Source: an uncultured Gammaproteobacteria bacterium
GTDB taxonomy: Bacteria > Patescibacteriota > Microgenomatia > Levybacterales > UBA12049
Direction of reading: 5' to 3'
NCBI GenBank assembly: GCA_964503265.1
Contig: CAZCYO010000001.1
Span: forward strand, 162,064-226,063
DNA length: 64,000 nt
The translations under genes were made by a program, and so were the position numbers. Below the pieces are notes generated by a model. It searched no databases and had not been told where the DNA came from. It saw nothing but the letters and a program-made list of their open reading frames with translations. Each line of letters begins with the position of its first letter. Position 1 is the first letter of the stretch. Of this stretch, positions 3,263-49,102 are shown in pieces.

Positions 3263-4441
3263 ATGCTTATAAAACCTCAAGCGAATAACTTCGCGAAAAT
3301 CCGCGTACTTGGTGTTGGTGGTGGTGGTGGAAATGCTGTTAATTCCATGGTAACCTCTGGCAATATTCAGGGTGTCGATTTTGTGGCAGTTAATACAGAT
3401 GCTCAGGCACTTCTCAGAAATAAAGCAGATATAAAGCTTCAAATTGGAGAGAATTATACCCGGGGACTTGGTAGTGGAGGAGATCCGGAAGTTGGCCGTC
3501 AAGCAGCAGAAGAATCAAGTGAGAAGATCAAACACATGTTAGAAGGATCTGATATGGTATTTTTAACAGCTGGAATGGGTGGGGGAACAGGAACTGGAGC
3601 TATCCCAGTCATCGCTCAGATTTCTAAAGAAGTAGGTGCGCTTACTGTTGCAGTCGTCACAAAACCATTTGCATTTGAAGGAACTCGTCGCATGGTATCT
3701 GCTGAAGAAGGTGTCGAAAGTGTTAAAGATCATGTCGATACATTAATCGTTATTCCAAATCAGAGAATTTTAGAAGTAGTCGATCGCAAACTCTCACTCG
3801 TCGATGCATTTAAAGTAGCTGATTCAGTACTCGAACAGGGTGTTCAGGGTATTTCTGAGATTATCACACTACCTGGACTTATCAATATCGACTTTGCCGA
3901 TGTACGAGCAATCATGCAAAATGCTGGTTCAGCACTCATGGGTATCGGAAAAGGAAAAGGAGAAGGTCGTGCACAAGCCGCAGCAAGGGGGGCAATCGCT
4001 TCCCCGTTACTCGAAGTATCGATGGATGGAGCACGGGGAGTATTATTTAATATCGTCGGTGGCCCTGATCTTACAATGACTGAGGTAGACGAAGCAGCGA
4101 AGATTATTAAATCAGCAGCAGATCCAGATGCGAACATTATTTTTGGAGCAGCAATTGAAGAATCTATGCGAGATGAACTGCGTATCACCGTCGTCGCGAC
4201 GGGATTTGACAGTAATCGTGTTACGATGCGAGACTTCATCCCAAATCGCTACAGCACACCATCAGTTCCATCCCAGCAAGAACCAGAAGAACGTCACGAG
4301 CGTCAAGATATACCAAATCAGCCATCTCAACCATCAAATGTACTTAACCAAGGCGGCATGCCACAGCAGCCACAAGAAAAGAAATCAGACAAAGAAGAAG
4401 ACGAATGGGACATCCCCGCATTCCTAAGGCAGAGAAACTAA
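3263..4441 (+). CDS. ftsZ: cell division GTPase FtsZ
   Basis: Tubulin signature [14 protein letters not shown]7 loop NIDFADV, acidic/Pro-Gln-rich C-terminal linker and conserved C-terminal DIPAFLR peptide. Confidence 0.95.
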
Positions 4442-4506
4442 CTTCATCAACCCTCTTCAAAGAAGCAAGATTGTGCGAAATGGATGAGCTTTTTAAGAAA
4501 AGAAAG

Positions 4507-5130
4507 TTATGTTAATCCTGGGGGTAAGAGGGCAGGTGGTTTTGCTACTGCTAGTACATTTTTTACACCGTCCTGAACGACTCGTGCATATCCTCTCTGA
4601 ACATCTTGATTACTTGGCTCTTTAGCAGGATAGTAACTCACTGTTTTTCCATCTCGCCAATCAACTGCATGTGCGATCATAGTGTTTTGAAAGGGATCAT
4701 CACTGACTAGAATTTCTTCATCAATTGGCACAGTCGCAGTGAAATTACTTAACTGGTTGTCTCCCTCCATTATATATTGCTGTAAATACGCTTTTCCTTT
4801 TTCAGCTGAGACAAAAATTTCCGCTCCACCCGCAACTGGTTTTCTAATAACATGAACTCTATCAATCGCTTTAACCTCTCCTCTTGCAGGATGCTCATAA
4901 TCAAATTTTGTTTCTTGGATTTCACCACTTGAGAGTACAACTGCCCGCAAGCCCTTACTCACAAAGCGCATCTGGAAAGCTAGCTCGTCTAACGATGTTA
5001 TCTCATTAACATCTTTCTCAGCAAAGCGTCTGAGATTTTCTAAAGCTCTCTCATAATCTTTCCCCGTTACATCCTCTTGTTGTGGAGGCCCAAATGATTG
5101 TTCTCGCTCACCGTCAGTTTGTTCAGACAT
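4507..5130 (-). CDS. hypothetical protein (207 aa, hydrophilic)
   Basis: Long ORF with host-like codon usage; no recognisable motif. Confidence 0.45.
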   Translation of the reverse strand: MSEQTDGEREQSFGPPQQEDVTGKDYERALENLRRFAEKDVNEITSLDELAFQMRFVSKGLRAVVLSSGEIQETKFDYEHPARGEVKAIDRVHVIRKPVAGGAEIFVSAEKGKAYLQQYIMEGDNQLSNFTATVPIDEEILVSDDPFQNTMIAHAVDWRDGKTVSYYPAKEPSNQDVQRGYARVVQDGVKNVLAVAKPPALLPPGLT

Positions 5131-26182: not shown

Positions 26183-26353
26183 TAATTTATGCCTAATTTC
26201 ATCAGTATTTTATCATTTTAGTATCAAGAAATACAGAGGAATTGGTTATATCATGAAGTTACTTTCCTCAGACACGTTAAACAGTAGCGTTTAGCATTTT
26301 TTTAGGAGAGGATCTTGAACAACTGATCGAATAGTATCTGAGAGGAGACGGTC

Positions 26354-26854
26354 ATGCACGATGCATTCACTTACTGCCCGAACTGTGGTGGTACGTTGGT
26401 GTGGCCAGTTATCACTCCTGGTCAGTCACATGGACGGCCAAAGTGTATTAACTGTGGTTTCACCGACTATCATAATCCAATCCCAGCTGTTTGTGCGATC
26501 GTCCCTTACGAAGGAGGAGTCGTACTAATACAGCGGAAGAAGGCCCCTTTCCCTGGGTCGTGGTGCTTGCCTTGTGGGTTTGTCGATTATCGCGAGCAGC
26601 CAGATGATGCTATCGTTCGCGAGGTACGCGAAGAGACTGGACTCATTGTTAGTCCGAGTTCTGTCGTTCTGGCATGTGTGCCAGAACAGACGAACGAGCT
26701 CGTACTTCACTACCATACTGAGGTCGTCGGTGGCGAGCTTATCGCTGGTGACGATGCTTATAGTGCAGCTGTCTACATGTCTGGCAATTTGCCAGAATAC
26801 ATGCCTTTTAAGACCCATCGAGACATTATCCAGAAATGGTTTTCTCAGAACTGA
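26354..26854 (+). CDS. NUDIX hydrolase with N-terminal C4 zinc ribbon (NudC-like)
   Basis: CPNCGG...CINCGF zinc ribbon; Nudix box GFVDYREQPDDAIVREVREETGL; GC ~50% and canonical GAGGAG SD, unlike neighbours. Confidence 0.75.
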   Translation: MHDAFTYCPNCGGTLVWPVITPGQSHGRPKCINCGFTDYHNPIPAVCAIVPYEGGVVLIQRKKAPFPGSWCLPCGFVDYREQPDDAIVREVREETGLIVSPSSVVLACVPEQTNELVLHYHTEVVGGELIAGDDAYSAAVYMSGNLPEYMPFKTHRDIIQKWFSQN

Positions 26855-26912
26855 TTTCTTACTAATTTAGTAACGAGTTCATCTCTCTGACTTTTCGATT
26901 AGTTTATTTTTC

Positions 26913-26946
26913 GCCCCCTGGTATCCACCGGGGGGCTTTCTTTTAC
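26913..26946 (+). terminator. Rho-independent terminator (gccccctgg / ccggggggc stem with one G-U, loop tatcca, then TTTCTTTTAC)
   Basis: GC-rich hairpin plus T-tract 60 nt after the NUDIX stop. Confidence 0.65.
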
Positions 26947-27001
26947 ACAAGAAGAATATGGTGAGATAACCAGGTAAAAGTATCATGTTACAATACCTGT
27001 A

Positions 27002-36027: not shown

Positions 36028-36038
36028 TTTGGTATACT
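36028..36038 (+). promoter_or_regulatory. module 0 promoter: extended -10 TTGGTATACT
   Basis: TGnTATACT directly after the GT2 stop; the same ttcctcacatttg-type context is seen at the module C promoter. Confidence 0.5.
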
Positions 36039-36069
36039 CTCGCCATGTCTTTCACATTCTCGTGGAAGA

Positions 36070-36080
36070 GCACTTTTACA
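36070..36080 (+). promoter_or_regulatory. module 0 leader box (GCACTTTTACA, variant of GCACGTTTACA)
   Basis: One-mismatch copy of the box conserved in all five tandem modules. Confidence 0.45.
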
Positions 36081-36115
36081 TTGTTACGATGCCTACAAGG
36101 CAGAAAGGATCTGTA

Positions 36116-36607
36116 ATGGACCTATCTCGTTTGTTCTGGGTAAACCTTTTCGGTATGATGATGAGTACGGTACTCGTGTTAGAGTACCATTTCCTTGTCC
36201 AAGACCGAGGTAGTCGGGGCGTGAAGTCCGTGGCGACAGCAGGAGTACTATTCATGCTTGTTCCACAAACAGTCATGGACTGCTTCTTCGTATATAACTC
36301 AGTACTTATTTATCCACTGAACTTTTTCTATAGCATAATGGGCATACTCGCCTTTTTTTTGGCAGCAATGCTAGTGAGTTCGCTCACACCAAAGCGGTTT
36401 CATGTATACCTTCTCCCACTCCATGCACTTCTCATAGTTGCAGGATGTGTAGAGATGGTAGCTATTCCTATCACCGCTTATGCAGTACAGCATGCTAGAG
36501 GAATAGAAATGTTCTTCTTTGTCGCGCTGGCAAGTATCGTCATACCTGTCGGTTCTATCATAGGGGTCACATCGCTCATGCTTCCGAAATACGGAGGCAC
36601 ACACTAA
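36116..36607 (+). CDS. island module 0: polytopic membrane protein (163 aa, ~4-5 TM)
   Basis: SD AAAGGA 6 nt before ATG at 36116 (ORF-track start 36029 is TTG inside the promoter); GC-rich codons. Confidence 0.55.
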   Translation: MDLSRLFWVNLFGMMMSTVLVLEYHFLVQDRGSRGVKSVATAGVLFMLVPQTVMDCFFVYNSVLIYPLNFFYSIMGILAFFLAAMLVSSLTPKRFHVYLLPLHALLIVAGCVEMVAIPITAYAVQHARGIEMFFFVALASIVIPVGSIIGVTSLMLPKYGGTH

Positions 36608-36622
36608 CATGCAGGAGGAGTC

Positions 36623-36883
36623 ATGCGAAAAGAACTCAGTGACATGAATCGACGGCAATTGGGTCGTCGAGTTCGGCGTTACAATCAGGTGTGCAAGGTG
36701 CTTATTCGAGCATTTGCGTACTTGGAAGTAACAGATGCCTACAAGCTCTTTCAGTGCGAAGTCGCTTCCTTTAGGAGGGACATTCGCAAGAAGAGGAAGT
36801 ACCCAACGGGTGTTCTGCGGACGCGAGTTATCAGGGTGCATGAGCGTTTGCAAGCGGTTGTGAAGCTCACGCACCGAGTATAA
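36623..36883 (+). CDS. island module 0: small highly basic protein (86 aa, Arg/Lys-rich, nucleic-acid-binding-like)
   Basis: SD AGGAGG before ATG; RRQLGRRVRRYNQ ... KKRKYPTGVLRTRVIRVHERL. Confidence 0.55.
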   Translation: MRKELSDMNRRQLGRRVRRYNQVCKVLIRAFAYLEVTDAYKLFQCEVASFRRDIRKKRKYPTGVLRTRVIRVHERLQAVVKLTHRV

Positions 36884-36892
36884 GGAGGTCTC

Positions 36893-37168
36893 ATGGCTGA
36901 TAGGCAGTTTCAAGGATTGACCCGAGTTCAACTCGCTGGGATCGCATGGAACATGCGTGGAATCATGGATATTCTCAACTCAGGACCGGATCTCGATGTG
37001 TCATTTCACCTCGTCTGGTTCTACCGTGAGCTTGAGAACTTCACAACTATGTTTAATTCACAAGAAGACGTTGAGACGCTTCGTCTTCAACTGTGCGTGG
37101 TGTATCAGGAGATGCACGGCTTCATATCTGTAGGAGGAGATGAAGTATCATCTACTGTTCAGTCGTAA
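36893..37168 (+). CDS. island module 0: small soluble protein (91 aa)
   Basis: SD AAGGAGG before ATG; followed by structured terminator. Confidence 0.55.
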   Translation: MADRQFQGLTRVQLAGIAWNMRGIMDILNSGPDLDVSFHLVWFYRELENFTTMFNSQEDVETLRLQLCVVYQEMHGFISVGGDEVSSTVQS

Positions 37169-37177
37169 CAATATCTA

Positions 37178-37290
37178 TAAGCACCGTCGCGGTGTAACCG
37201 AGCAGTGATCCTTACTTCTGGACAATGGCGTCCATGAGGCGAGAACTCAGCTTCGGTTGCATAAACCAAAGCGGTGCTTTCTCGTTTTAG
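37178..37290 (+). terminator. module 0 structured terminator: AAGCACCG ... CGGTGCTT closing stem enclosing ~85 nt, then TCTCGTTTTAG
   Basis: Same GCACC/GGTGC closing helix with covarying flanks is found after modules A-D. Confidence 0.55.
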
Positions 37291-37359: not shown

Positions 37360-37374
37360 TTTTTTTGTTATACT
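37360..37374 (+). promoter_or_regulatory. module A promoter: T-tract + extended -10 TGTTATACT
   Basis: ttttttTGtTATACT. Confidence 0.5.
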
Positions 37375-37437
37375 CCAGTTTATATCTAAACATATGTAGA
37401 CTAATACCTGTCTATAGTAGGTTTATTTATGCTCATA

Positions 37438-37448
37438 GCACGTTTACA
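37438..37448 (+). promoter_or_regulatory. module A leader box GCACGTTTACA
   Basis: Exact copy of conserved 11-mer, ~65 nt downstream of -10. Confidence 0.5.
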
Positions 37449-37546
37449 GTACGGAAAAGTGATTCAATTAGGAACTCTTTATTTCATATCTATAGAGATA
37501 TGAGGTATGGGGTTCCTATTTTGGAACCGAATCGAGGAGGGTCAGC

Positions 37547-38020
37547 ATGGCTATCCAGATTCCCGACCCAGCTTTGGGAGCCTGGTTTTTTCCAGAAAAC
37601 GCCCCGATTCCTATGGAGTTCGTCTCTGATAACTTCGCACTTCGCATCAGCAAAGGCGGCCGTAAGGTTGTCGTTGGCGAGGTTACGATCATCGATGCGA
37701 TCAAGATGTGTATGTATACCGTCCGGATGGAGAATGGCTTGCCAGTTGCTTATTGGCAAGCTGTGCAAAGTGATCCCGATGCGAAGTTGACCCTTGGCCT
37801 GGCGCCACTGGGTGAAAAGAGGGAGGTAACTCCGAAGGAGCGCAGGAGGATGAATTTCCTTCTGCATAACGCGGCAGGGTGCAATTGTGTGCCGTTTCCT
37901 GGCGATGTGACCATCTTCTGGCGCACGGCGCTGGACATGTGCGCGTCTCCCAATAGTCAGAGGCATACGCCTCGGCGCCAGATGACCAAGGTCAGTCCGC
38001 GAAAAGCTCACAAGCGCTAA
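37547..38020 (+). CDS. island module A: hypothetical protein (157 aa) with basic C-terminal tail
   Basis: SD GAGGAGG before ATG; ~165-nt leader containing a ggttcc/ggaacc hairpin. Confidence 0.55.
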   Translation: MAIQIPDPALGAWFFPENAPIPMEFVSDNFALRISKGGRKVVVGEVTIIDAIKMCMYTVRMENGLPVAYWQAVQSDPDAKLTLGLAPLGEKREVTPKERRRMNFLLHNAAGCNCVPFPGDVTIFWRTALDMCASPNSQRHTPRRQMTKVSPRKAHKR

Positions 38021-38060
38021 GCCTCTCACTTCTCACACCATTCCGTACTCTCGTGCCTAC

Positions 38061-38145
38061 GCACCCTCGAATCAGTGATGATTCATTCGCCATGTGGCGG
38101 ATTCTTAGTGACAACGATGTCACAACGAGAGGGTGCATTACCATT
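38061..38145 (+). terminator. module A structured terminator: GCACCCTC ... GAGGGTGC closing stem, weak U-tract
   Basis: Covariant version of the GCACC/GGTGC helix; encloses a gtgaca/tgtcac hairpin. Confidence 0.45.
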
Positions 38146-38174
38146 TAAATAACCCATAGTTCTACTTTAATTCC

Positions 38175-38188
38175 TTTTTTGCTATACT
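38175..38188 (+). promoter_or_regulatory. module B promoter: T-tract + extended -10 TGCTATACT
   Basis: ttttttGCTATACT. Confidence 0.5.
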
Positions 38189-38226
38189 TCGCTTACGTCA
38201 TACTAAGAAAAAATCTTAGTGTGCTC

Positions 38227-38237
38227 GCACGTTTACA
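38227..38237 (+). promoter_or_regulatory. module B leader box (TC)GCACGTTTACA
   Basis: Exact 13-mer TCGCACGTTTACA. Confidence 0.5.
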
Positions 38238-38268
38238 TCTTTCGTATTGTGTCAGAAGAAAGGAGTCT

Positions 38269-38619
38269 ATGATGCTACCACATCCTCATGACTATGGACG
38301 AATTCAACTGCGAGCAGTATTTTCCCTGCAACGTTCACCAACTGGTGAAACTCTCATTGAAGAGGGCGACTACCGGCTGGTCAAGCATTTGCCATGTGGC
38401 CATCCATTTAAGACGATGGCACTAGCAATTATGCTTAACCTCGGATCGTACAAGATCTGGGAACTACGTGCTCTCATAGAGCATATAGAGAGAAAGGAGA
38501 GCGTTGGCATCGAAAGTATCTTTGGCGAACTAATCACCTGTGTGAGATGCCGTGAGGCATTTCTTCACCTCGTGACTGGGTTCATGGATGCACTCATCGC
38601 AATGGGCGAAGAGAGCTAA
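38269..38619 (+). CDS. island module B: soluble protein (116 aa) with Cys/His cluster (CGHP ... CVRC)
   Basis: SD AAAGGAG before ATG at 38269 (ORF-track 38179 start lies in the promoter). Confidence 0.55.
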   Translation: MMLPHPHDYGRIQLRAVFSLQRSPTGETLIEEGDYRLVKHLPCGHPFKTMALAIMLNLGSYKIWELRALIEHIERKESVGIESIFGELITCVRCREAFLHLVTGFMDALIAMGEES

Positions 38620-38637
38620 AACAAAGGAGGCTGTGTC

Positions 38638-38949
38638 ATGCGCGAATACTGGTGGGTTGGCATTCTTGGGTGGATTCTGCTCGATATCACTGGTAGTAGG
38701 TTAAGTCCTCGTGCCATTAAAGGTACATGGCGGAGTGAAGAGACACCACTTGGAAAAGTCATCTCTTTTCTCGGATACTCCAGTGTTCTGGCATCGCACA
38801 TCGTGTTCGTGGTTACCTTTCTTCTCCTTCTGCGCTCAGATGGATTCTTCGCAGTCGTCGGCTGTAGTGGAGCAGTCGCAGTAGGCGATCGCTCAGCTGT
38901 GAGTATGGGATACTTCACGCACAAACGAGAAAGGAGGAATCCACAATAA
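38638..38949 (+). CDS. island module B: two-TM mini-membrane protein (103 aa), basic C-terminus ...RERRNPQ
   Basis: SD AAGGAGG; C-terminus similar to module C mini-protein (...NRHRPQN). Confidence 0.55.
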   Translation: MREYWWVGILGWILLDITGSRLSPRAIKGTWRSEETPLGKVISFLGYSSVLASHIVFVVTFLLLLRSDGFFAVVGCSGAVAVGDRSAVSMGYFTHKRERRNPQ

Positions 38950-38958
38950 CCAAACAAT

Positions 38959-39071
38959 AAGCACCGTGGAGGTGTAACCGAGCAAAGTAGCTCATCAACG
39001 GACAACGGCGTCCATGAGATTGGCACTTAGCTACGGTTACCTAAACCTAAGCGGTGCTTTCTCATTTTTAG
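38959..39071 (+). terminator. module B structured terminator: AAGCACCG ... CGGTGCTT + TCTCATTTTTAG
   Basis: Near-identical in organisation to the module 0 terminator (shared internal ggtgtaaccgagca and ggacaa-ggcgtccatgag). Confidence 0.55.
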
Positions 39072-39090
39072 CGCCCCAAAGTCTTATTGT

Positions 39091-39108
39091 CTTTTTTTTT
39101 GGTATAAT
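39091..39108 (+). promoter_or_regulatory. module C promoter: T9 tract + extended -10 TGGTATAAT
   Basis: ctttttttttGGTATAAT. Confidence 0.5.
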
Positions 39109-39178
39109 TTCCTCACATTTGAAAGGTACAGAGACTATTCAAGCTGTCTTTATTACTTTATCAATTGTCTAATCTATC

Positions 39179-39189
39179 GCACGTTTACA
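39179..39189 (+). promoter_or_regulatory. module C leader box (TC)GCACGTTTACA
   Basis: Exact 13-mer. Confidence 0.5.
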
Positions 39190-39285
39190 TTTTTTGCGGA
39201 AATTAACCCACTCACCGATGGCTTTTTGTTTGGTATCACTACCAGCTGAAAAGCTGTCGAATGAGTGTAATGTAGGAGAGGATCT

Positions 39286-39615
39286 ATGAAGTTCGTGGAG
39301 GTCTACACTCGGTTGGAAGGAGTTCCAGAAGGAACTATCATCAGCTTGACGTTTAAAAAAAAGGACATCAAGAAAATTCTCTATTTGGCTACGATGATCG
39401 GGAAGAAAATCCCTATCTTCACAGTCGAGAAAGGAACAAAGAAGAAAATAAAGCGGCTGTCTCGTAAGCAAGTCTGGTATAACAGACGAGATCGTACGAT
39501 CTCTGTCCGGACCACTTCGACCTTTGGAGAAGCTCTGAATATGGATTGGTTCGTCACAGTTATGTGTTATAGCCTCGAACATGTCGAGGTCTTATTCCAT
39601 CAGGAGCACCGCTGA
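39286..39615 (+). CDS. island module C: soluble Lys-rich protein (109 aa), LTF-motif family
   Basis: SD AGGAGAGG; N-terminus MKFVEVYTRLEGVPEGTIISLTF paralogous to 40816 ORF (MKLVDIYALSSAGIPTGAKLVLTF). Confidence 0.55.
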   Translation: MKFVEVYTRLEGVPEGTIISLTFKKKDIKKILYLATMIGKKIPIFTVEKGTKKKIKRLSRKQVWYNRRDRTISVRTTSTFGEALNMDWFVTVMCYSLEHVEVLFHQEHR

Positions 39616-39727
39616 AGCGGTAAAGGAGGTCACAAACCGTACAGCTGCTCGAGTTAGCGGCCACTGTTCACAATTCCTTCATCGATCTGATGAGGAACCT
39701 CGACTATATTCGCTGAGGAGGTGCACT

Positions 39728-39877
39728 ATGCCCCCGTTCAACGTAGTTATTGCTATCGTAATTGTAGCTCTCGTGGCTACATTCGCGATAAGCCGTGATC
39801 TATGGCCAGCTCTCGGAGTGTTCGTTGGAGGAATTCTCATTCTGTTGTGGTGCAATAGACACCGTCCACAGAATTAA
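39728..39877 (+). CDS. island module C: two-TM mini-membrane protein (49 aa)
   Basis: SD GAGGAGG before ATG at 39728; paralogous to 40630 ORF; ORF-track 39581 extension is unsupported. Confidence 0.5.
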   Translation: MPPFNVVIAIVIVALVATFAISRDLWPALGVFVGGILILLWCNRHRPQN

Positions 39878-39913
39878 ATTTCCTTACTTTTTCCGTAATG
39901 GTTATCGTGCCTT

Positions 39914-39978
39914 AAGCACCCCGATACGTTTCCAGTGATGGGAATTTCCGAAAGGATAGGGGTGCTTTCTCATTTTTA
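39914..39978 (+). terminator. module C structured terminator: AAGCACCCC ... GGGGTGCTT + TCTCATTTTTAT
   Basis: Compensatory change (CG to CC/GG) relative to modules 0 and B. Confidence 0.55.
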
Positions 39979-40020
39979 TATCCTCAATTCATTGAAACCT
40001 ATAGTTTGATTATTTCTCAT

Positions 40021-40033
40021 TTTTTTGCTATAC
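40021..40033 (+). promoter_or_regulatory. module D promoter: T-tract + extended -10 TGCTATACT
   Basis: tttttTGcTATACT. Confidence 0.5.
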
Positions 40034-40175
40034 TACACATGCATTTGAAGGCTATCTAGACTCATTTTTGCTGTCTCGATAATACTTCTTCTGCTTATTT
40101 ATTCGACCACTGTATCTTACTTTTCGACTTAGATCATTTGATCTGTGGCTTAAAGAGCGATAAGTAGTGGACTTC

Positions 40176-40186
40176 GCACGTTTACA
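40176..40186 (+). promoter_or_regulatory. module D leader box (TC)GCACGTTTACA
   Basis: Exact 13-mer; followed by tcccgat-atac-atcggga hairpin and CGATGGCTTT(T)TG motif shared with module C leader. Confidence 0.5.
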
Positions 40187-40303
40187 AATCATCCCGATAT
40201 ACATCGGGAATTGCGGAAATAGATAACTAATCGATGGCTTTGTGCCTCGACAGACAGTCGGGATAGAAAGTCGTCGGTTAGTTTTTCGTCGAAAGGATCA
40301 TAA

Positions 40304-40606
40304 ATGTCTCACGAAGCTGTTCTGAACATAGTCACAGACCTTCTGCCACTGACGCTGATCGAGATAACCTTCACACTAGAAGGATTTCAGGGTCTCTGCC
40401 TTCTACATCAAATGTGTCAACGCAAGGGTTTACCTCTGCTATTTGACGCGCGGACTCATCGTCGAATTGGACGTCTAGTGAGCATCGGAGAGTGGGGAGA
40501 CGATGGAAATCGTCATATCTTCGGATACATATCCGAGGCTTTTTCTCCCACTCACTTCACTGAAACACTTCAGCCATATCTCGAAAATGTTCGAGTAGTG
40601 GCCTAA
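40304..40606 (+). CDS. island module D: soluble protein (100 aa), LTF-motif family
   Basis: SD AAAGGA; LTLIEITFTLEG motif. Confidence 0.5.
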   Translation: MSHEAVLNIVTDLLPLTLIEITFTLEGFQGLCLLHQMCQRKGLPLLFDARTHRRIGRLVSIGEWGDDGNRHIFGYISEAFSPTHFTETLQPYLENVRVVA

Positions 40607-40629
40607 CCTACATAATGGAGGTGTCCAAC

Positions 40630-40791
40630 ATGCAAACATTCTGCGATCTGTTTGCCATCTTTCTGGTGGCGATCGGGTATACAGCCGCATTAAGCGGCGG
40701 ACTACTCGGTGGGGGAATTCTCATCACAGTTGCGCTCCTTCTCATCTTCGCGCCCACAGTCTATATGGACTGGGCAAAATTGCGTCGCTGA
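40630..40791 (+). CDS. island module D: two-TM mini-membrane protein (53 aa; below ORF-track size cutoff)
   Basis: SD GGAGG 8 nt before ATG; MQTFCDLFAIFLVAIGYTAALSGGLLGGGILITVALLLIF resembles module C mini-protein; coordinates hand-counted (+/-1). Confidence 0.45.
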   Translation: MQTFCDLFAIFLVAIGYTAALSGGLLGGGILITVALLLIFAPTVYMDWAKLRR

Positions 40792-40815
40792 TGCGACAAA
40801 TGTAATGGAGGCACC

Positions 40816-41013
40816 ATGAAGCTCGTCGACATCTATGCTCTGTCCAGTGCTGGTATCCCGACGGGAGCAAAACTCGTACTTACGTTCGAGCTCAATGCGC
40901 ACATGGGTCCTTTCCACCTGAAAGGACTTGTTCAGAATCACAGTTTGCCGACCGCGTCGGCCCCTTCTTGGAGAGCCTGGAGATTAAGCGCCCGTAAGGG
41001 CAATGAGCTATAA
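40816..41013 (+). CDS. island module D: small soluble protein (65 aa), paralog of module C 109-aa protein N-terminus
   Basis: SD GGAGG; MKLVDIYALSSAGIPTGAKLVLTFEL. Confidence 0.5.
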   Translation: MKLVDIYALSSAGIPTGAKLVLTFELNAHMGPFHLKGLVQNHSLPTASAPSWRAWRLSARKGNEL

Positions 41014-41035
41014 CGCAATCGTACACGTGCGAATC

Positions 41036-41112
41036 TCGCACCCTTGGGTCTTTTTAGACCCGCCTCTTTAGAGAGGTTTCTGTAAAAAGAAAGGGTGCGA
41101 TTTTTGCATTTT
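41036..41112 (+). terminator. module D / island-end structured terminator: TCGCACCCTT ... AAGGGTGCGA + TTTTTGCATTTT
   Basis: 10-bp closing helix around two internal hairpins (gggtc/gaccc, cctct/agagg) followed by U-tract, 40 nt before ileS. Confidence 0.55.
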
Positions 41113-41155
41113 ATGCCTAGTTGAATAGGCTCAACCTTTGCGCTACAATTAGCCC

Positions 41156-44032
41156 ATGGCTCACGAGATAACATTTGATGCAGTAACCCCGAAAGTAAAT
41201 TTTCCTGAAATGGAAGAAGAGACACTTTCTTACTGGAAAGAAAACCGTATTTTTGAAAAATCACTTGAAAAAGATTCCCCTAAAGGTGACTGGACATTTT
41301 TAGATGGTCCACCTTTTGTCACAGGACTTCCACACTATGGTCATATTTTAGGCAGTATCGCGAAAGATTTATTCCCTCGTTTTAAAACGATGCAGGGATA
41401 TCACGTCAGACGTGTATGGGGATGGGATGGGCACGGACTACCGATTGAAAATAAAGTCGAGAATAAGCTTGAAATAAAACGTAAAAAAGATATCGAAGAA
41501 ATCGTCGGAGTAGCGAAATTTATCGAAGAATGTAAAACATATGTGAATGAAGTATCAGGAGAGTGGGAATGGTACATCGATCATATCGCGCGTTGGGTAG
41601 ATTTTAAAAATGCATACAAAACCTGGGATACACCATACATGGAATCTGTCATGTGGGTGTTTAAACAGATGTATGAAAAAGGATATGTCTATAAAGGACT
41701 TCGCGTTTCTCTCTACTGTCCTCACTGTTCAACACCTATTTCTAACTTCGAAGTCGCGATGGATGCAGACAATTATAAAGAAATTATCGACGCAGCTACC
41801 ACATACAAGTATGAATTAGTAGGTGAAAATAATACCTATATTCTTGCTTGGTCGACAACTCCTTGGAATAAAATCGTTACTCCAGCCCTGGCCGTAAATC
41901 CAAAACTCACCTATGTAAAAGTGATACAGGGTGAAGAACTGTATATTTTAGCTGAATCCACTATCAAGACGATTCAAGGGGAATATGAAGTAATTGAAAA
42001 GATGCAGGGAGCTGACTTAGTAGGAAAGAAATTCGTGCCTCATTATGATTATTATAAAATTGCAGAGGGTGAGAAAGCCTTTGAAATTATCCCTGGAGAT
42101 TTCGTGACAGCAGAGGAGGGAACTGGCGTTGTCACAATCGCTGCCTACGGTGAAGAGGATTTGAAAGTAATGAACGAATATAATGTTCATATCGAACTTC
42201 ATGTCGATGAGGAAGGTACAATTAAATCCGACGTGCCGATGTTTGGTGGGATGTATTATTTAAAGGCAAACAAAGCAGTTAATGCAGATTTAGCAGAACG
42301 AGGGCTTGTCTATCGTGATGAAGATTTGCCACACAATGTTCCACTCTGCTGGAGATGTCACACCAGGCTCTACTATGCTCCACAAAATGCGTGGTATGTA
42401 AATGTACAGATACTTAAAGATCAACTGAAAAAAACAAATAAAGATATTAACTGGGTTCCATCTCACTTTAAAACTGGACGCTTTCAGAAAAGTATCGAAG
42501 CAGCACCAGACTGGTGTATATCACGAAATAGATACTGGGGTTCACCGGTTCCAGTGTGGGAATGTATGTGTGGAGAGCGATTCGTTCCAGGATCGATTGC
42601 TGAACTAGAAACGGCAAGTGGACGAAAAATAAAAGACTTACATAAGCCAGAAATAGACGAAGTAACAGTTCCGTGTAAAAAATGTGATCAAACCATGCAT
42701 AGAGTACCAGAAGTACTCGATAGTTGGATTGAGGCTGGGTCTGCAGCTTTTGCAGAACGTCACTTTCCATTTGAAGGAATCACTGATCCTAGCGAATTCT
42801 TCCCATCAGATTTTATCGTCGAATATACAGGACAGATTCGCGCATGGTTCTATGTATTACATGTTATTTCAAATGCAATTTACGGTGAAAAAGCATTTAA
42901 AAATGTCGCTGTTACTGGAGTAATACTTGGAACTGATGGACGAAAGATGAGTAAGAATCTGGGTAATTATCCAGATCCGAAGGAACTTATGAAAGAGTAT
43001 GGAGGAGACGCACTCAGACTCTATCTCATGAGTAGTCCTGTGATTCGTGGTGAGGATGCGATTATATCTGCTGAAGCATATCGACAGGAAGTACGAGGAC
43101 TCATGCTTATTTTATGGAATGTCTATAACTTCTTTATTAGTTATGCTCTTATTGATGGCTGGACTCCTGATCGTCATCCTGGAAAAGCAACGACTTTGAT
43201 AGGATCTCACAAGAATGGAGATTCTATCGCTGCGCTCCAGAATGACAATGTTTTAGATCAATGGATCATATCTCTTCAGAATACGTTGATTAAAGAAGTC
43301 ACTGAGTGTTTAGAAAAATATGATACGGTAACTTCAATCGCGAAATTGCATGAATTCGTTAATGACCTTTCGACATGGTATTTACGACGAAGTCGAGATC
43401 GTGTGGGACCAAGTGCGATGGATACACATGACAGAGAAGCGTTTTATGTAACCATGTATGAAGTACTGACCACACTATGTCGTGTGATGGCGCCGTTCAC
43501 ACCATTTTTAGCAGATGAAATGTATATGAATTTAACGAAAGAAGAGTCTGTGCATTTAGCATCATGGCCTGAGTATAAAGAAGAACTAATTAACAAACAG
43601 CTTAACGAAGAAATGAATGTGGTTCGTAAAATTGTCGAGATAGGACATGCGAAACGAAAAGAAACAGGTTTTAAAGTTAGACAGCCACTAAATAATTGTC
43701 AAATATCAAATGTCCAATATCCAATATCCAAAGAGATGATGCAGTTGCTTAAGGATGAACTAAACGTAAAAGAAATAGAATTTACTTTAGGAGAAGAAGA
43801 AATAGATGTTATTTTCGACATTGTGTTAACACCTGAGCTTAAAGCTGAGGGGGAGGCGCGGGATATCGTTAGAAAGATTCAAGAAGAAAGAAAGATGATC
43901 GGAACGACGCTTGATGCGAAAGTGAATGTGACGATTCCTGAGTATCCTGAAAGTTTTGTGGAGTATATTAAACAGAATGCACTAGTTGAAATAATTTCAA
44001 AAGGGGAGTTTAAGGTAGAGAAAGTTGGGTAG
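41156..44032 (+). CDS. ileS: isoleucyl-tRNA synthetase, eukaryote-like type 2
   Basis: HIGH variant PHYGH, GWDGHGLPIE, KMSKN motif GRKMSKNLGNYPDP; N-terminus typical of type 2 IleRS; TACAAT 7 nt before ATG, no SD. Confidence 0.85.
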   Translation: MAHEITFDAVTPKVNFPEMEEETLSYWKENRIFEKSLEKDSPKGDWTFLDGPPFVTGLPHYGHILGSIAKDLFPRFKTMQGYHVRRVWGWDGHGLPIENKVENKLEIKRKKDIEEIVGVAKFIEECKTYVNEVSGEWEWYIDHIARWVDFKNAYKTWDTPYMESVMWVFKQMYEKGYVYKGLRVSLYCPHCSTPISNFEVAMDADNYKEIIDAATTYKYELVGENNTYILAWSTTPWNKIVTPALAVNPKLTYVKVIQGEELYILAESTIKTIQGEYEVIEKMQGADLVGKKFVPHYDYYKIAEGEKAFEIIPGDFVTAEEGTGVVTIAAYGEEDLKVMNEYNVHIELHVDEEGTIKSDVPMFGGMYYLKANKAVNADLAERGLVYRDEDLPHNVPLCWRCHTRLYYAPQNAWYVNVQILKDQLKKTNKDINWVPSHFKTGRFQKSIEAAPDWCISRNRYWGSPVPVWECMCGERFVPGSIAELETASGRKIKDLHKPEIDEVTVPCKKCDQTMHRVPEVLDSWIEAGSAAFAERHFPFEGITDPSEFFPSDFIVEYTGQIRAWFYVLHVISNAIYGEKAFKNVAVTGVILGTDGRKMSKNLGNYPDPKELMKEYGGDALRLYLMSSPVIRGEDAIISAEAYRQEVRGLMLILWNVYNFFISYALIDGWTPDRHPGKATTLIGSHKNGDSIAALQNDNVLDQWIISLQNTLIKEVTECLEKYDTVTSIAKLHEFVNDLSTWYLRRSRDRVGPSAMDTHDREAFYVTMYEVLTTLCRVMAPFTPFLADEMYMNLTKEESVHLASWPEYKEELINKQLNEEMNVVRKIVEIGHAKRKETGFKVRQPLNNCQISNVQYPISKEMMQLLKDELNVKEIEFTLGEEEIDVIFDIVLTPELKAEGEARDIVRKIQEERKMIGTTLDAKVNVTIPEYPESFVEYIKQNALVEIISKGEFKVEKVG
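43172..43248 (+). mobile_element. ~77 bp copy of the TGTCATCC/GAATGACA repeat family inserted in-frame within ileS (encodes ~RHPGKATTLIGSHKNGDSIAALQNDN)
   Basis: cGTCATCCtggaa...ataggatctcacaagaatggagattctatcgctgcgctccaGAATGACAa is ~85% identical over ~50 nt to the internal part of the 32892-33016 element. Confidence 0.6.
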
Positions 44033-48172: not shown

Positions 48173-48280
48173 GTGTCTATTATCTGCGGACCACGCTTAA
48201 AAGTCAATTAACATGAGGATTTGTCCTCACTGTTTCGCATAGAAATGCAGCGGGGGGTCAGAGGTGTAATTTGGGATCCC

Positions 48281-48315
48281 TATCTCATGACGAGACGGGG
48301 ATCCCAGGGGTATGG
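48281..48315 (-). terminator. hairpin tgggatccc / gggatccca (9-bp stem) downstream of the minus-strand module E ORFs; a second hairpin tgagga/tcctca + T-rich run lies at ~48211-48230
   Basis: Perfect inverted repeats between module E stop and lepB start; U-tract weak for the first, better for the second. Confidence 0.35.
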
Positions 48316-48330
48316 GATGTAGGATGCGAA

Positions 48331-48534
48331 TTATTGCTTGTCGACCGAGACAGCGCGTTGTTCACTCGATTCGATGCGTAATAAAAGGACAATGCTACAA
48401 AAAACGAGCTCTACTAAAAATAATAGAAAAAGCACGCTGTAGCCCCAAGAAAAGATAATGGAGCAGTACATCCCAGCTAGGCAGGCGATAACAACTAAGA
48501 AGCAGATCCGAGTACTCAGAGGTATACGAGCCAT
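48331..48534 (-). CDS. module E: two-TM mini-membrane protein (67 aa)
   Basis: SD AAAAGGAGG 7 nt before ATG (MARIPL...); the longer ORF-track version (to 48666) overlaps the upstream gene; GC-rich. Confidence 0.5.
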   Translation of the reverse strand: MARIPLSTRICFLVVIACLAGMYCSIIFSWGYSVLFLLFLVELVFCSIVLLLRIESSEQRAVSVDKQ

Positions 48535-48577
48535 AGGAATGCCTCCTTTTTTACTCATCCGCCGTACATCGGCGAGA

Positions 48578-48928
48578 TTAGTTCTGTGAGATTTGTCGCT
48601 GCGTGTCCTCACTAAGGACGCGCATGAACGTCGTGATGACTTCGTCTGATCGGCGCTGTAGGTCATGATCGATGAGTATCTCTCTGATCTTGACGTACTC
48701 CCTTTGACCGAGAATACCAGAGTGCCAGTGATTTGGTGAAGGCCAGCAGAAGAGTTCTGTCGGAGTATTCGTGTCTGGCTGGTACTGGATCAGAAGGATC
48801 TGGACGAGCATGAGTCTGGGGTACCGACGCAGTTCTATCATCATCCCATTATCTAATTCAATGGGGTAGATGGAAGGCTGACCGAATGTCAACTGCATGT
48901 GTAGCTTCGATCCTTCGACGTCACTCAC
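48578..48928 (-). CDS. module E: soluble protein (116 aa), LTF-motif family (KLHMQLTFGQP)
   Basis: GTG start with SD AAAGGAG 6 nt upstream; GC-rich codons. Confidence 0.5.
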   Translation of the reverse strand: MSDVEGSKLHMQLTFGQPSIYPIELDNGMMIELRRYPRLMLVQILLIQYQPDTNTPTELFCWPSPNHWHSGILGQREYVKIREILIDHDLQRRSDEVITTFMRVLSEDTQRQISQN

Positions 48929-49086
48929 GAGCGACTCCTTTCATGTAATACGAATGAACGACGCTCTATGCAGAAATAGTTTCTGAACAGGGTATCGCTC
49001 ACTCATACCATCCTAACATCTCAATGTGCGAAAAATAAATAAATTAAAAAGCAGCAAAACAGCCTGTAATTTATATATTATGGGGT

Positions 49087-49102
49087 ATTATAGCAAAAAA
49101 AA
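49087..49102 (-). promoter_or_regulatory. module E promoter on minus strand: T8 tract + extended -10 TGCTATAAT
   Basis: Reverse complement of 49081-49102 reads cttttttttGCTATAATacccc; leader contains TCGCACATTGAG (cf. TCGCACGTTTACA) at ~49020-49031. Confidence 0.45.

Follow-up and report, generated by a model that had tools for sequence, protein, structure and literature searches.

Reiterated small-gene units occupy two GC-rich blocks of the 64-kb stretch of DNA analyzed here (hereafter, the window), which belongs to Candidatus Levyibacteriota, a member of the candidate phyla radiation (CPR). Five of these units are arranged in tandem immediately upstream of ileS, and a sixth (unit E) lies at 48.3-49.1 kb. 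Together they constitute a lineage-specific, hypervariable and compositionally atypical accessory island at a chromosomal hotspot, in which insulated mini-operons are built on a reiterated scaffold and the payload differs from unit to unit, mostly consisting of a soluble protein of ~100 amino acids (aa) followed by a membrane hairpin. The best-conserved part is an untranslated leader, which is a candidate new structured RNA. We consider the structural and evolutionary description, taken by itself, to be highly probable; the function proposed below is tentative and, on its own, rather doubtful; and the complete statement, comprising structure, evolution and function, is in our view evenly balanced between right and wrong.

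The GC content of the window is ~36%, against which a block of 45-55% stands out at 36.0-41.1 kb, upstream of ileS. This block is devoid of long open reading frames (ORFs) and is interrupted by AT-rich gaps roughly every 0.8-1.4 kb. A second GC-rich block of 0.9 kb and similar character is found at 48.2-49.1 kb, and the six units together take up about 6 kb of a streamlined genome. When the IleRS gene (41156-44032) was used as an anchor, the closest genomes were metagenome-assembled genomes (MAGs) of Candidatus Levyibacteriota/Patescibacteria, with a top identity of 83%. IleRS-anchored synteny across 80 genomes and 80 metagenome contigs revealed no homologues of the array upstream of ileS; in some relatives this slot is merely a short typA-ileS intergenic region, and the sole finds were an orthologue of the first gene of unit E (E1) and, later, the leader element. 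Patescibacteria often carry genomic islands (PMC12455944), and hence the presence of an island as such is not surprising. An origin of the GC-rich, ORF-poor block in rRNA, tRNA or a known non-coding RNA was ruled out, since searches of the full 64 kb with Rfam and ARAGORN produced zero matches.

All six units follow a common plan, which emerged from reading of the sequence together with repeat and motif searches. Every unit opens with an extended -10 promoter, TTTTTTG[CGT]TATA[AC]T (five of the six matches in the window fall inside units, versus 0.6 expected), which is often preceded by CCCATAGYT. The promoter is followed by a leader of 80-270 nt carrying the motif TCGCACGTTTACA, also written GCAC[GA]TT(T)ACA, of which there are five plus-strand copies versus 0.7 expected, while unit E has the variant CGCACATTGAGATG. 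Next come one to three small ORFs, with a correctly spaced AGGAGG-type Shine-Dalgarno (SD) sequence ahead of each of the 13 ORFs (5-10 nt upstream in units B to E). The terminator of the unit is a stem-loop or three-way junction of unusual size, with GCACC...GGTGC as its closing helix and a U-run behind it. Folding of these terminators gave z-scores between -3.7 and -7.3 in five of the six units, and z = -2.6 in unit C, whose terminator is a short form. Between units A (37177-37290) and B (38957-39079), the 3' elements are 83% identical over ~110 nt even though the preceding genes are unrelated; each folds into a long hairpin of very high stability (z = -3.7 and -6.4, respectively) with GGTGCTTTCTCATTTT at its end, the short form being that at 39914-39975. 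The element may have a role beyond termination, for instance as a small RNA or an RNA-stability element. The leaders of units C and D have the extra blocks TTGCGGAAAT and CGATGGCTTT in common, indicating that C and D arose by an old duplication of an entire unit. On inspection, the leader motif did not fit a sigma-54 or second promoter, and its complementarity to SD sequences or terminators amounted to a trivial 4 nt. Homology between the unit promoter and the antisense of the first codons of typA is not claimed, since the alignment register is ambiguous.

The initial annotation of this region described modules B, C, D and E. The array extends beyond these modules, beginning at 36.0 kb with units A and M2, so that B, C and D are units three to five; all five lie on the plus strand. 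Unit A (36030..37290) has its promoter TGGTATACT at 36030-36038 and its leader motif GAGCACTTTTACA at 36067-36080, and encodes a polytopic membrane protein (A1, 36116-36607, 163 aa), a very basic protein that is possibly a nucleic-acid binder or regulator (A2, 36623-36883, 86 aa, pI 11.4) and an acidic protein (A3, 36893-37168, 91 aa), followed by the conserved 3' stem-loop described above. Unit M2 (37360..38136; promoter TTTTTTTGTTATACT at 37360-37374, leader motif ATAGCACGTTTACA at 37435-37448) contains a single ORF for a soluble, basic protein of 157 aa (37547-38020) and terminates in a three-way junction (38061-38136). Unit B (38174..39079; promoter 38174-38188, leader motif CTCGCACGTTTACA at 38224-38237) encodes the soluble orphan B1 (38269-38619, 116 aa) and the membrane protein B2 (38638-38949, 103 aa). 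Unit C (39094..39975; promoter TTTTTGGTATAAT at 39096-39108, leader motif at 39176-39189 and the TTGCGGAAAT box) encodes C1 (39286-39615, 109 aa) and a hairpin of two transmembrane (TM) segments, C2 (39728-39877, 49 aa), ahead of its short terminator. Unit D (40020..41108; promoter 40020-40034) carries the conserved structured leader element at 40102..40218, followed by D1 (40304-40606, 100 aa), the 2-TM hairpin D2 (40630-40791, 53 aa), the degraded copy D3 (40816-41013) and a three-way-junction terminator (41027-41108). Unit E (48272..49099) is found on the minus strand, with its promoter TTTTTGCTATAAT at 49099-49087, the leader motif variant at 49030-49017, the soluble protein E1 (48928-48578, 116 aa, GTG start), the 2-TM hairpin E2 (48534-48331, 67 aa) and a terminator hairpin at 48306-48272. 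The two-gene layout proposed earlier for B, C, D and E holds, with ORFs at the coordinates first assigned to them, an SD sequence ahead of each, and gaps between soluble and membrane ORFs of 18, 112, 23 and 43 nt, respectively.

The relationships among the proteins of these units are narrower than the shared scaffold. In Smith-Waterman comparisons against 300 shuffles, C1 and D3 (z = 5.9), C1 and D1 (z = 4.7), and C2 and D2 (z = 3.8) are similar, and all pairs involving B1, E1, B2 or E2 remain at chance level. These values bear out two claims of the initial annotation, namely that C1 can be aligned with the ORF at 40816 (D3, itself a degraded copy) and that the mini-proteins of C and D align with each other. 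Its further suggestion of kinship between B2 and C2 by way of a basic C-terminus is not upheld, as this pair scores 23, a chance-level value outside the top 20 of 78 pairs. The hydrophobic-LTF motif, proposed as common to all of the soluble proteins, is a true signature ([VIL]x[IL]TFK) of the family formed by C1, D1 and D3 and is absent from B1 and E1: B1 has no LTF motif, and the 'QLTF' of E1 reads QLSH in its own orthologue. A single family for all soluble proteins was likewise rejected, with B1 and E1 matching the C1/D1 family at an hhalign probability of 0.1%. Judging from these comparisons, paralogy is confined to units C and D, and units B and E have the architecture and cis-elements in common with them and encode unrelated proteins. 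Hence, the idea of a diversified paralogous pair repeated in tandem describes modules C and D and does not extend to B and E, whose similarity to the other units is of the order of E = 1. The mini-proteins C2, D2 and E2 each form a clean 2-TM hairpin, and no other mini-ORF within the 64 kb combines two TM segments with a preceding SD sequence; B2, which was also described as a two-TM protein, is less clean, having one strong TM segment and weaker hydrophobic stretches.

The most extensively conserved feature of the units is found upstream of their genes. In unit D, the leader contains a long irregular hairpin (P1-P1b-P1c-P1d-P2, 40102-40179) with the invariant blocks CTTACTTTTCGNCTT and GGCTTAAAGAGCG, and a second hairpin, P3 (about 40174-40216, TCGCA...TGCGG), with GTTTACA in its loop; signatures of the element are the pattern TCGCACGTTTACAN{1,31}TGCGGAA and the blocks CTTACTTTTCGNCTT...GGCTYWAAGAGCG. 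Among the units, the long hairpin is complete in D only and is truncated in C. A homologous leader of ~260 nt occurs on contig L167, upstream of the gene for P0016, which is the closest remote relative of C1 and D1. The two leaders are 61% identical over 261 nt and include long exact blocks, compared to 41% nucleotide and 26% amino-acid identity of the coding sequences, and they differ by hairpin-sized insertions and compensatory changes, for example AGAUC-AUUU-GAUCU in unit D versus AGUAG-AUUU-CUACU in L167. A further copy in the related genome L077 was first recovered with nhmmer, and a covariance model based on the sequences of D, L167 and L077 then retrieved an independent fourth copy in the genome L141 (44.9 bits, E = 2e-9). 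Each of the four leaders folds alone into one common long irregular hairpin. Of the cells in the model-guided alignment, 88% are paired (32-49% in slid controls), seven pairs are changed on both sides (one to two in slid controls), and the covariation score was reached by none of 500 shuffles, figures that rest on four sequences from two clades and on an alignment fitted to the model itself. By inspection, the loop of the second hairpin reads (C/U)(G/A)UUUA(C/U)A, and the stem closing it is UCGCA/UGCGG in C, D and L167 and UGUGUAC/GUACACA in L077 and L141. Searches with Rfam 15 returned nothing at gathering score in the window, and only chance-level matches at E<=10 for 35.8-41.3 kb and L141. 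The nhmmer search with the leader recovered unit C weakly (E~0.1), and therefore it is the short motif and the promoter block that link the leaders of A, M2, B and E with the full element.

In L077 (4921-5045) and L141 (9758-9905), the element is located between divergent typA (minus strand) and ileS (plus strand) genes, and is not followed by a small ORF; typA itself is missing from the window. These copies indicate kinship between the unit leader and the intergenic region separating typA from ileS in sister lineages. In both genomes the P1 arm of the element, ATCCUCC, is the reverse complement of the SD sequence of typA, and by inspection the opposite, typA-sense strand has a perfect TGGTATAAT promoter box. 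This strand also folds better, at -33.5 and -37.0 kcal/mol for L077 and L141 versus -28.3 for both on the plus strand, and the leaders of D and L167 have no strand preference in folding. Read in the typA sense, the element contains an anti-SD arm, AAUCCUCC, that base-pairs with the SD sequence GGAGGAU, and ahead of this region lie the TGGTATAAT box and, on the 5' side, a hairpin with a U-run. The arrangement has the look of a previously undescribed 5' leader of typA/BipA, absent from Rfam, that sequesters the SD sequence in some Levyibacteriota.

The units also recall integron arrays and clusters of attC sites lacking integron integrases (CALINs), in which small orphan ORFs of atypical composition likewise stand in tandem and the structured elements between them are imperfect palindromes that have retained structure more than sequence. 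However, there is no recombinase among the Pfam-annotated neighbours at 27.5-42.7 kb, and the GTTTACA of TCGCACGTTTACA violates the R' core GTTRRRY of attC sites (cores RYYYAAC/GTTRRRY). Moreover, the motif is located upstream of the ORFs, all units have promoters and terminators of their own, and the long hairpin is restricted to unit D, with a truncated form in C.

An exhaustive HMMER search with a profile of C1, D1 and D3 against 1.84 billion representative proteins identified 18 further proteins of ~100 aa with full-length matches (E-values of 2.5e-8 to 8e-4). The family is characterized by the motifs [VIL]x[IL]TFK, YLLGM (YLxGM), W..D.NRT, FD.DWF..R (F..DWF) and LE.IEVV (LE.[IV]EV). These conserved motifs mark C1 and D1 as real genes and support an undescribed 'ITFK-NRT-DWF' family of ~100-aa CPR proteins for which there is no curated model. 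So far, the family is found only in CPR and uncultured bacteria, P0019 for instance coming from a Parcubacteria MAG. C1 and D1 are full-length members, D3 belongs by its N-terminal half only, and B1 and E1 fall outside. The family's C-terminal motif QFADRVGPFLESLEIKRP is present in D3 in another frame, at 40932-40997, and therefore D3 has undergone an internal deletion and a frameshift and is a degraded copy, not an intact gene of 65 aa. P0016 is 38% identical in amino acids to C1 and 26% to D1. The structure prediction for D1 reached a pLDDT (predicted local distance difference test) score of 54, and this model is unusable.

Members of this family are mostly encoded among other small orphan genes and have a GC content at third codon positions (GC3) above that of their neighbours. 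P0023 stands alone between Ldh_2 and GatB genes; soluble ORFs come after P0016, P0018 and P0021; downstream of P0017 are a 70-aa soluble ORF and then a gene for a 157-aa protein whose N-terminal part has two TM segments; P0024 precedes an ABC-transporter operon on the opposite strand; and P0025 precedes a 514-aa orphan. On contig L169 (1-12324), P0017 is part of a run of small orphans flanked by DUF2726, HATPase_c+DUF4325, RsgA-like GTPase and patatin-like genes, a context that is reminiscent of defence islands. The run of orphan genes around P0021 includes, at 3237-3893 of contig L171, an adjacent pair of GC-rich paralogous ORFs of 101 and 111 aa that start with MSHPLPHIHCRH and MPYPLTHLHCRR. 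A resemblance of the N-terminus of B1 (MMLPHPH; MMLPHPHDYGR) to these L171 ORFs (MSHPLPH, MPYPLTH) was not significant by phmmer.

In the nearest genome, L003, the orthologue of E1 occupies the same slot as in the window, between signal peptidase and glycosyltransferase genes, and is 39% identical to E1 (E=8e-23), where IleRS is 83% identical. A comparison of E1 with an 89% variant from another sample gave 0.225 synonymous (dS) and 0.070 non-synonymous (dN) substitutions per site, a dN/dS ratio (omega) of 0.31; the parallel comparison for the neighbouring glycosyltransferase gave a dS of 0.254, a dN of 0.002 and an omega of 0.007. Since the dS values are similar, mutational input was equal, and the E1 protein evolves ~35-fold faster while still under purifying selection. 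E1 is a genuine, fast-evolving gene. Additionally, a 98.4% strain variant of units C-D has a 6-nt deletion in D1 that keeps the frame. The genes of the units have GC3 values of 0.42-0.63, compared to 0.21-0.39 for host genes, and GC content is higher at first than at second codon positions (GC1>GC2) in the chosen frames. These data bear directly on the possibility that the region consists mainly of non-coding structured RNAs and that most of the small ORFs, B1, B2, A1-A3 and M2 in particular, are spurious. The elevated GC content, the lack of long ORFs in the block (yet long ORFs are reported on both strands), the very stable stem-loops, the leader that is better conserved than the coding sequence, and the missing homologues of B1, B2, A2 and the rest would all be compatible with such an interpretation. 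We nevertheless regard it as very improbable, given the purifying selection on E1, the amino-acid motifs of C1/D1, the in-frame indel in D1, the strong and well-spaced SD sequence before all 13 ORFs, the GC1>GC2 pattern, and the lack of any Rfam or tRNA match.

Gene content turns over at the slot of unit E. In L003 and L084, the E1 homologue is followed by ORFs for a 110-aa soluble and a 132-aa TM protein in a block with a GC content of 0.52, and the other strand carries ORFs for one soluble protein of 106 aa and two TM proteins of 97 aa. This stretch (6484-8832 of L003, also present in L084 and L085) contains six small ORFs on two strands, both 97-aa ORFs being 3-TM proteins; the order is again soluble-then-membrane, and the proteins are unrelated to those of the window. 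In the genome L007 (16357-19100), which is more distantly related, the slot beside the signal peptidase gene has a tRNA gene followed by GC-rich orphan ORFs, including paralogues of 238 and 217 aa (37% identity, E=4e-31), and is a typical integration hotspot.

The units might instead be remnants of a phage, satellite or other mobile element, with moron-like genes specifying, for example, superinfection-exclusion or holin/antiholin-type peptides. An autonomous block running from promoter to terminator is the defining layout of phage morons, and the units, which encode orphan proteins, conform to it: each has its own sigma70-type promoter, an intrinsic terminator, a GC content and GC3 far from host values, and a small accessory payload that is often a membrane protein, and neighbouring hotspots in relatives adjoin a tRNA gene. 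The units differ from morons in being located outside a prophage, in tandem on the chromosome between housekeeping genes, and in having one promoter/leader/terminator design common to all. There were no PHROG matches, and pattern scans of IMG/VR and tblastn searches of GenBank phages found no relevant relatives. Integrase, capsid, terminase and transposase genes are missing among the annotated neighbours within ~8 kb upstream, and a BFVD fold search gave no match at E<=0.001. Furthermore, the E module holds a constant chromosomal position across species whose IleRS proteins are 83% identical, and its high GC3 persists at this position, which argues against recent import. A mobile-element remnant is, on this evidence, an unlikely explanation. 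The 2-TM peptides could also be compared to class II holins, from which they differ in having no holin match in Pfam or PHROGs and no lysin-like gene within or beside the units.

The closest architectural analogue among known systems is GhoS/GhoT, the type V toxin-antitoxin (TA) system of Escherichia coli, in which a 2-TM toxin of 57 aa, GhoT (OrtT has the same length and topology), is controlled by GhoS, an endoribonuclease specific for ghoT mRNA (PMC4344625, PMC4010927). According to a reading of this type, each unit would encode a 2-TM peptide toxin and, upstream of it, a ~100-aa antitoxin acting on the toxin's mRNA or protein. Gene order and sizes are in agreement, C2, D2 and E2 (49-67 aa) being located behind soluble ORFs of ~100-116 aa much as the ~50-60-aa second gene follows the ~100-aa first gene in GhoS/GhoT; the genes are small, fast-evolving and potentially multi-copy, as is typical of TA loci; and weak fold matches of E1 include single-stranded nucleic-acid binders of the PC4/Whirly/MRP/PUR type. 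The fold of GhoS is a Cas2-like ferredoxin. In contrast, the predicted fold of E1 is alpha-beta4-alpha-alpha, which is not Cas2/ferredoxin-like, and GhoS is absent from its fold matches. No GhoS-family match was found, and Pfam searches at permissive E-values gave no match of C2, D2, E2 or B2 to Toxin_GhoT_OrtT. More generally, the 13 proteins of the window and eight island proteins of relatives had nothing significant in Pfam, PHROGs, PADLOC or PDB sequences, and the same was true of all 21 members of the C1/D1 family in Pfam, PHROGs and PDB sequences; the best sub-threshold matches were B2 with DUF5657, a family of small membrane proteins (15.3 bits, E=0.023, gathering score 25 bits), and E2 with Cpta_toxin (E=0.19). 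The soluble proteins are also mutually unrelated across units, the C1/D1 family lacks a membrane partner in all seven other contexts, and the units have long conserved 5' leaders. We therefore consider a system of the GhoS/GhoT kind improbable. Type I TA loci resemble the units in their hydrophobic peptides of ~50 aa, long structured leaders and tandem duplication, and differ in that the membrane peptide of the units is a second cistron behind a soluble protein and that no antisense RNA gene was identified.

Alternatively, the payloads might be small surface or membrane proteins for attachment to, or interaction with, the hosts of episymbiotic CPR bacteria, diversified by host-driven selection. 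The restriction of the C1/D1 family to CPR and uncultured bacteria, the membrane peptides and the rapid evolution fit this proposal. However, the soluble proteins have neither signal peptides nor TM anchors, nothing connects them with pili, adhesins or secretion genes of the window, and the proposal is purely contextual; we judge it quite unlikely.

Our favoured reading of function is that the common promoter and leader would place all units under one regulator or signal, and that the payloads would be conflict-type modules in which the membrane is the target of the small membrane peptide and the soluble protein encoded upstream would control or neutralise this peptide, this partner role being filled by different soluble proteins in different units. 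The toxin/immunity or effector/chaperone function suggested in the initial annotation is at most compatible with the fast evolution, presence/absence variation between close relatives, one decayed copy, atypical codon usage and small membrane hairpins; none of the proteins matches a known toxin, antitoxin, holin or defence family. Its suggestion that the proteins may be undescribed is borne out by the database searches and by the absence of a curated model for C1/D1. A more far-reaching version, unlikely in our estimation, would regard the units as a new cassette system in CPR, in which the reiterated scaffold captures and co-regulates interchangeable, fast-evolving payloads, and the leader is an undescribed cis-regulatory RNA common to the 5' region of typA (BipA) in sister lineages, tying the units to one physiological signal.

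It should be noted that several observations weigh against the favoured reading. Adjacent 2-TM mini-ORFs were found in none of the seven remote genomic contexts of the C1/D1 family, which contradicts the anticipated co-occurrence of soluble and membrane genes in related genomes; therefore, the soluble C1/D1-type protein needs no membrane partner, and the pair is not a conserved two-gene unit. B1, B2, A1-A3 and M2 have no homologues at all, and their translation is supported by SD sites and frame composition only; k-mer searches for homologues of D1, B1 and the E1 profile likewise returned nothing beyond self or near-self. Finally, the covariation comes from the small, model-fitted alignment described above, and the leader may act on either strand, given that the L077 and L141 copies fold better in the typA sense, where they would sequester the SD sequence of typA.

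Other features of the window and its relatives were recorded along with the island. The genes downstream of the array encode IleRS, a RodA-like protein, L21, L27, ParB and signal peptidase. The start of ileS (41121-41158) has a -35 box (TTGAAT/TTTGAA) and a -10 box (TACAAT/TATAAT) separated by 17 nt, the latter ending 6 nt before the ATG, with no SD sequence, and this layout is kept in three genomes (window 41121-41158, L077 5100-5150 and L141 9950-9995); the ileS mRNA appears to be leaderless or near-leaderless. Further patches of elevated GC content (0.46-0.49) at 3651-4600 and 26201-27000 overlap ORFs at 3263-4441 (392 aa) and 26354-26854 (166 aa), and could represent highly expressed or further acquired genes. 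Many third-party annotation (TPA) MAG records are titled 'uncultured Gammaproteobacteria bacterium' (others 'Methylomirabilota' or 'Eisenbacteria') and encode IleRS proteins 61-83% identical to that of this Levyibacteriota gene, and some of them (L003, L007) also have gene order in common with the window; the organism names of these records (loci L003-L080) look wrong.

An accessory island of small genes with a TA-like layout is a known phenomenon; what is new here is the reiterated scaffold and its covarying leader. The Patescibacteria have tiny genomes in which a large share of the genes are small orphans of unknown function, and the units described here supply three testable objects from this fraction: a family of ~100-aa CPR proteins, a set of 2-TM mini-proteins, and a candidate structured RNA, which in related genomes sits on the ribosome-binding site of typA. 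They also illustrate that a soluble-plus-membrane layout can recur on a shared scaffold without homology of the proteins, which calls for caution in cassette-style annotation. The retention of a costly scaffold, together with non-synonymous change ~35-fold faster than in neighbouring genes, points to a role of these units that is under selection and probably conflict-related.

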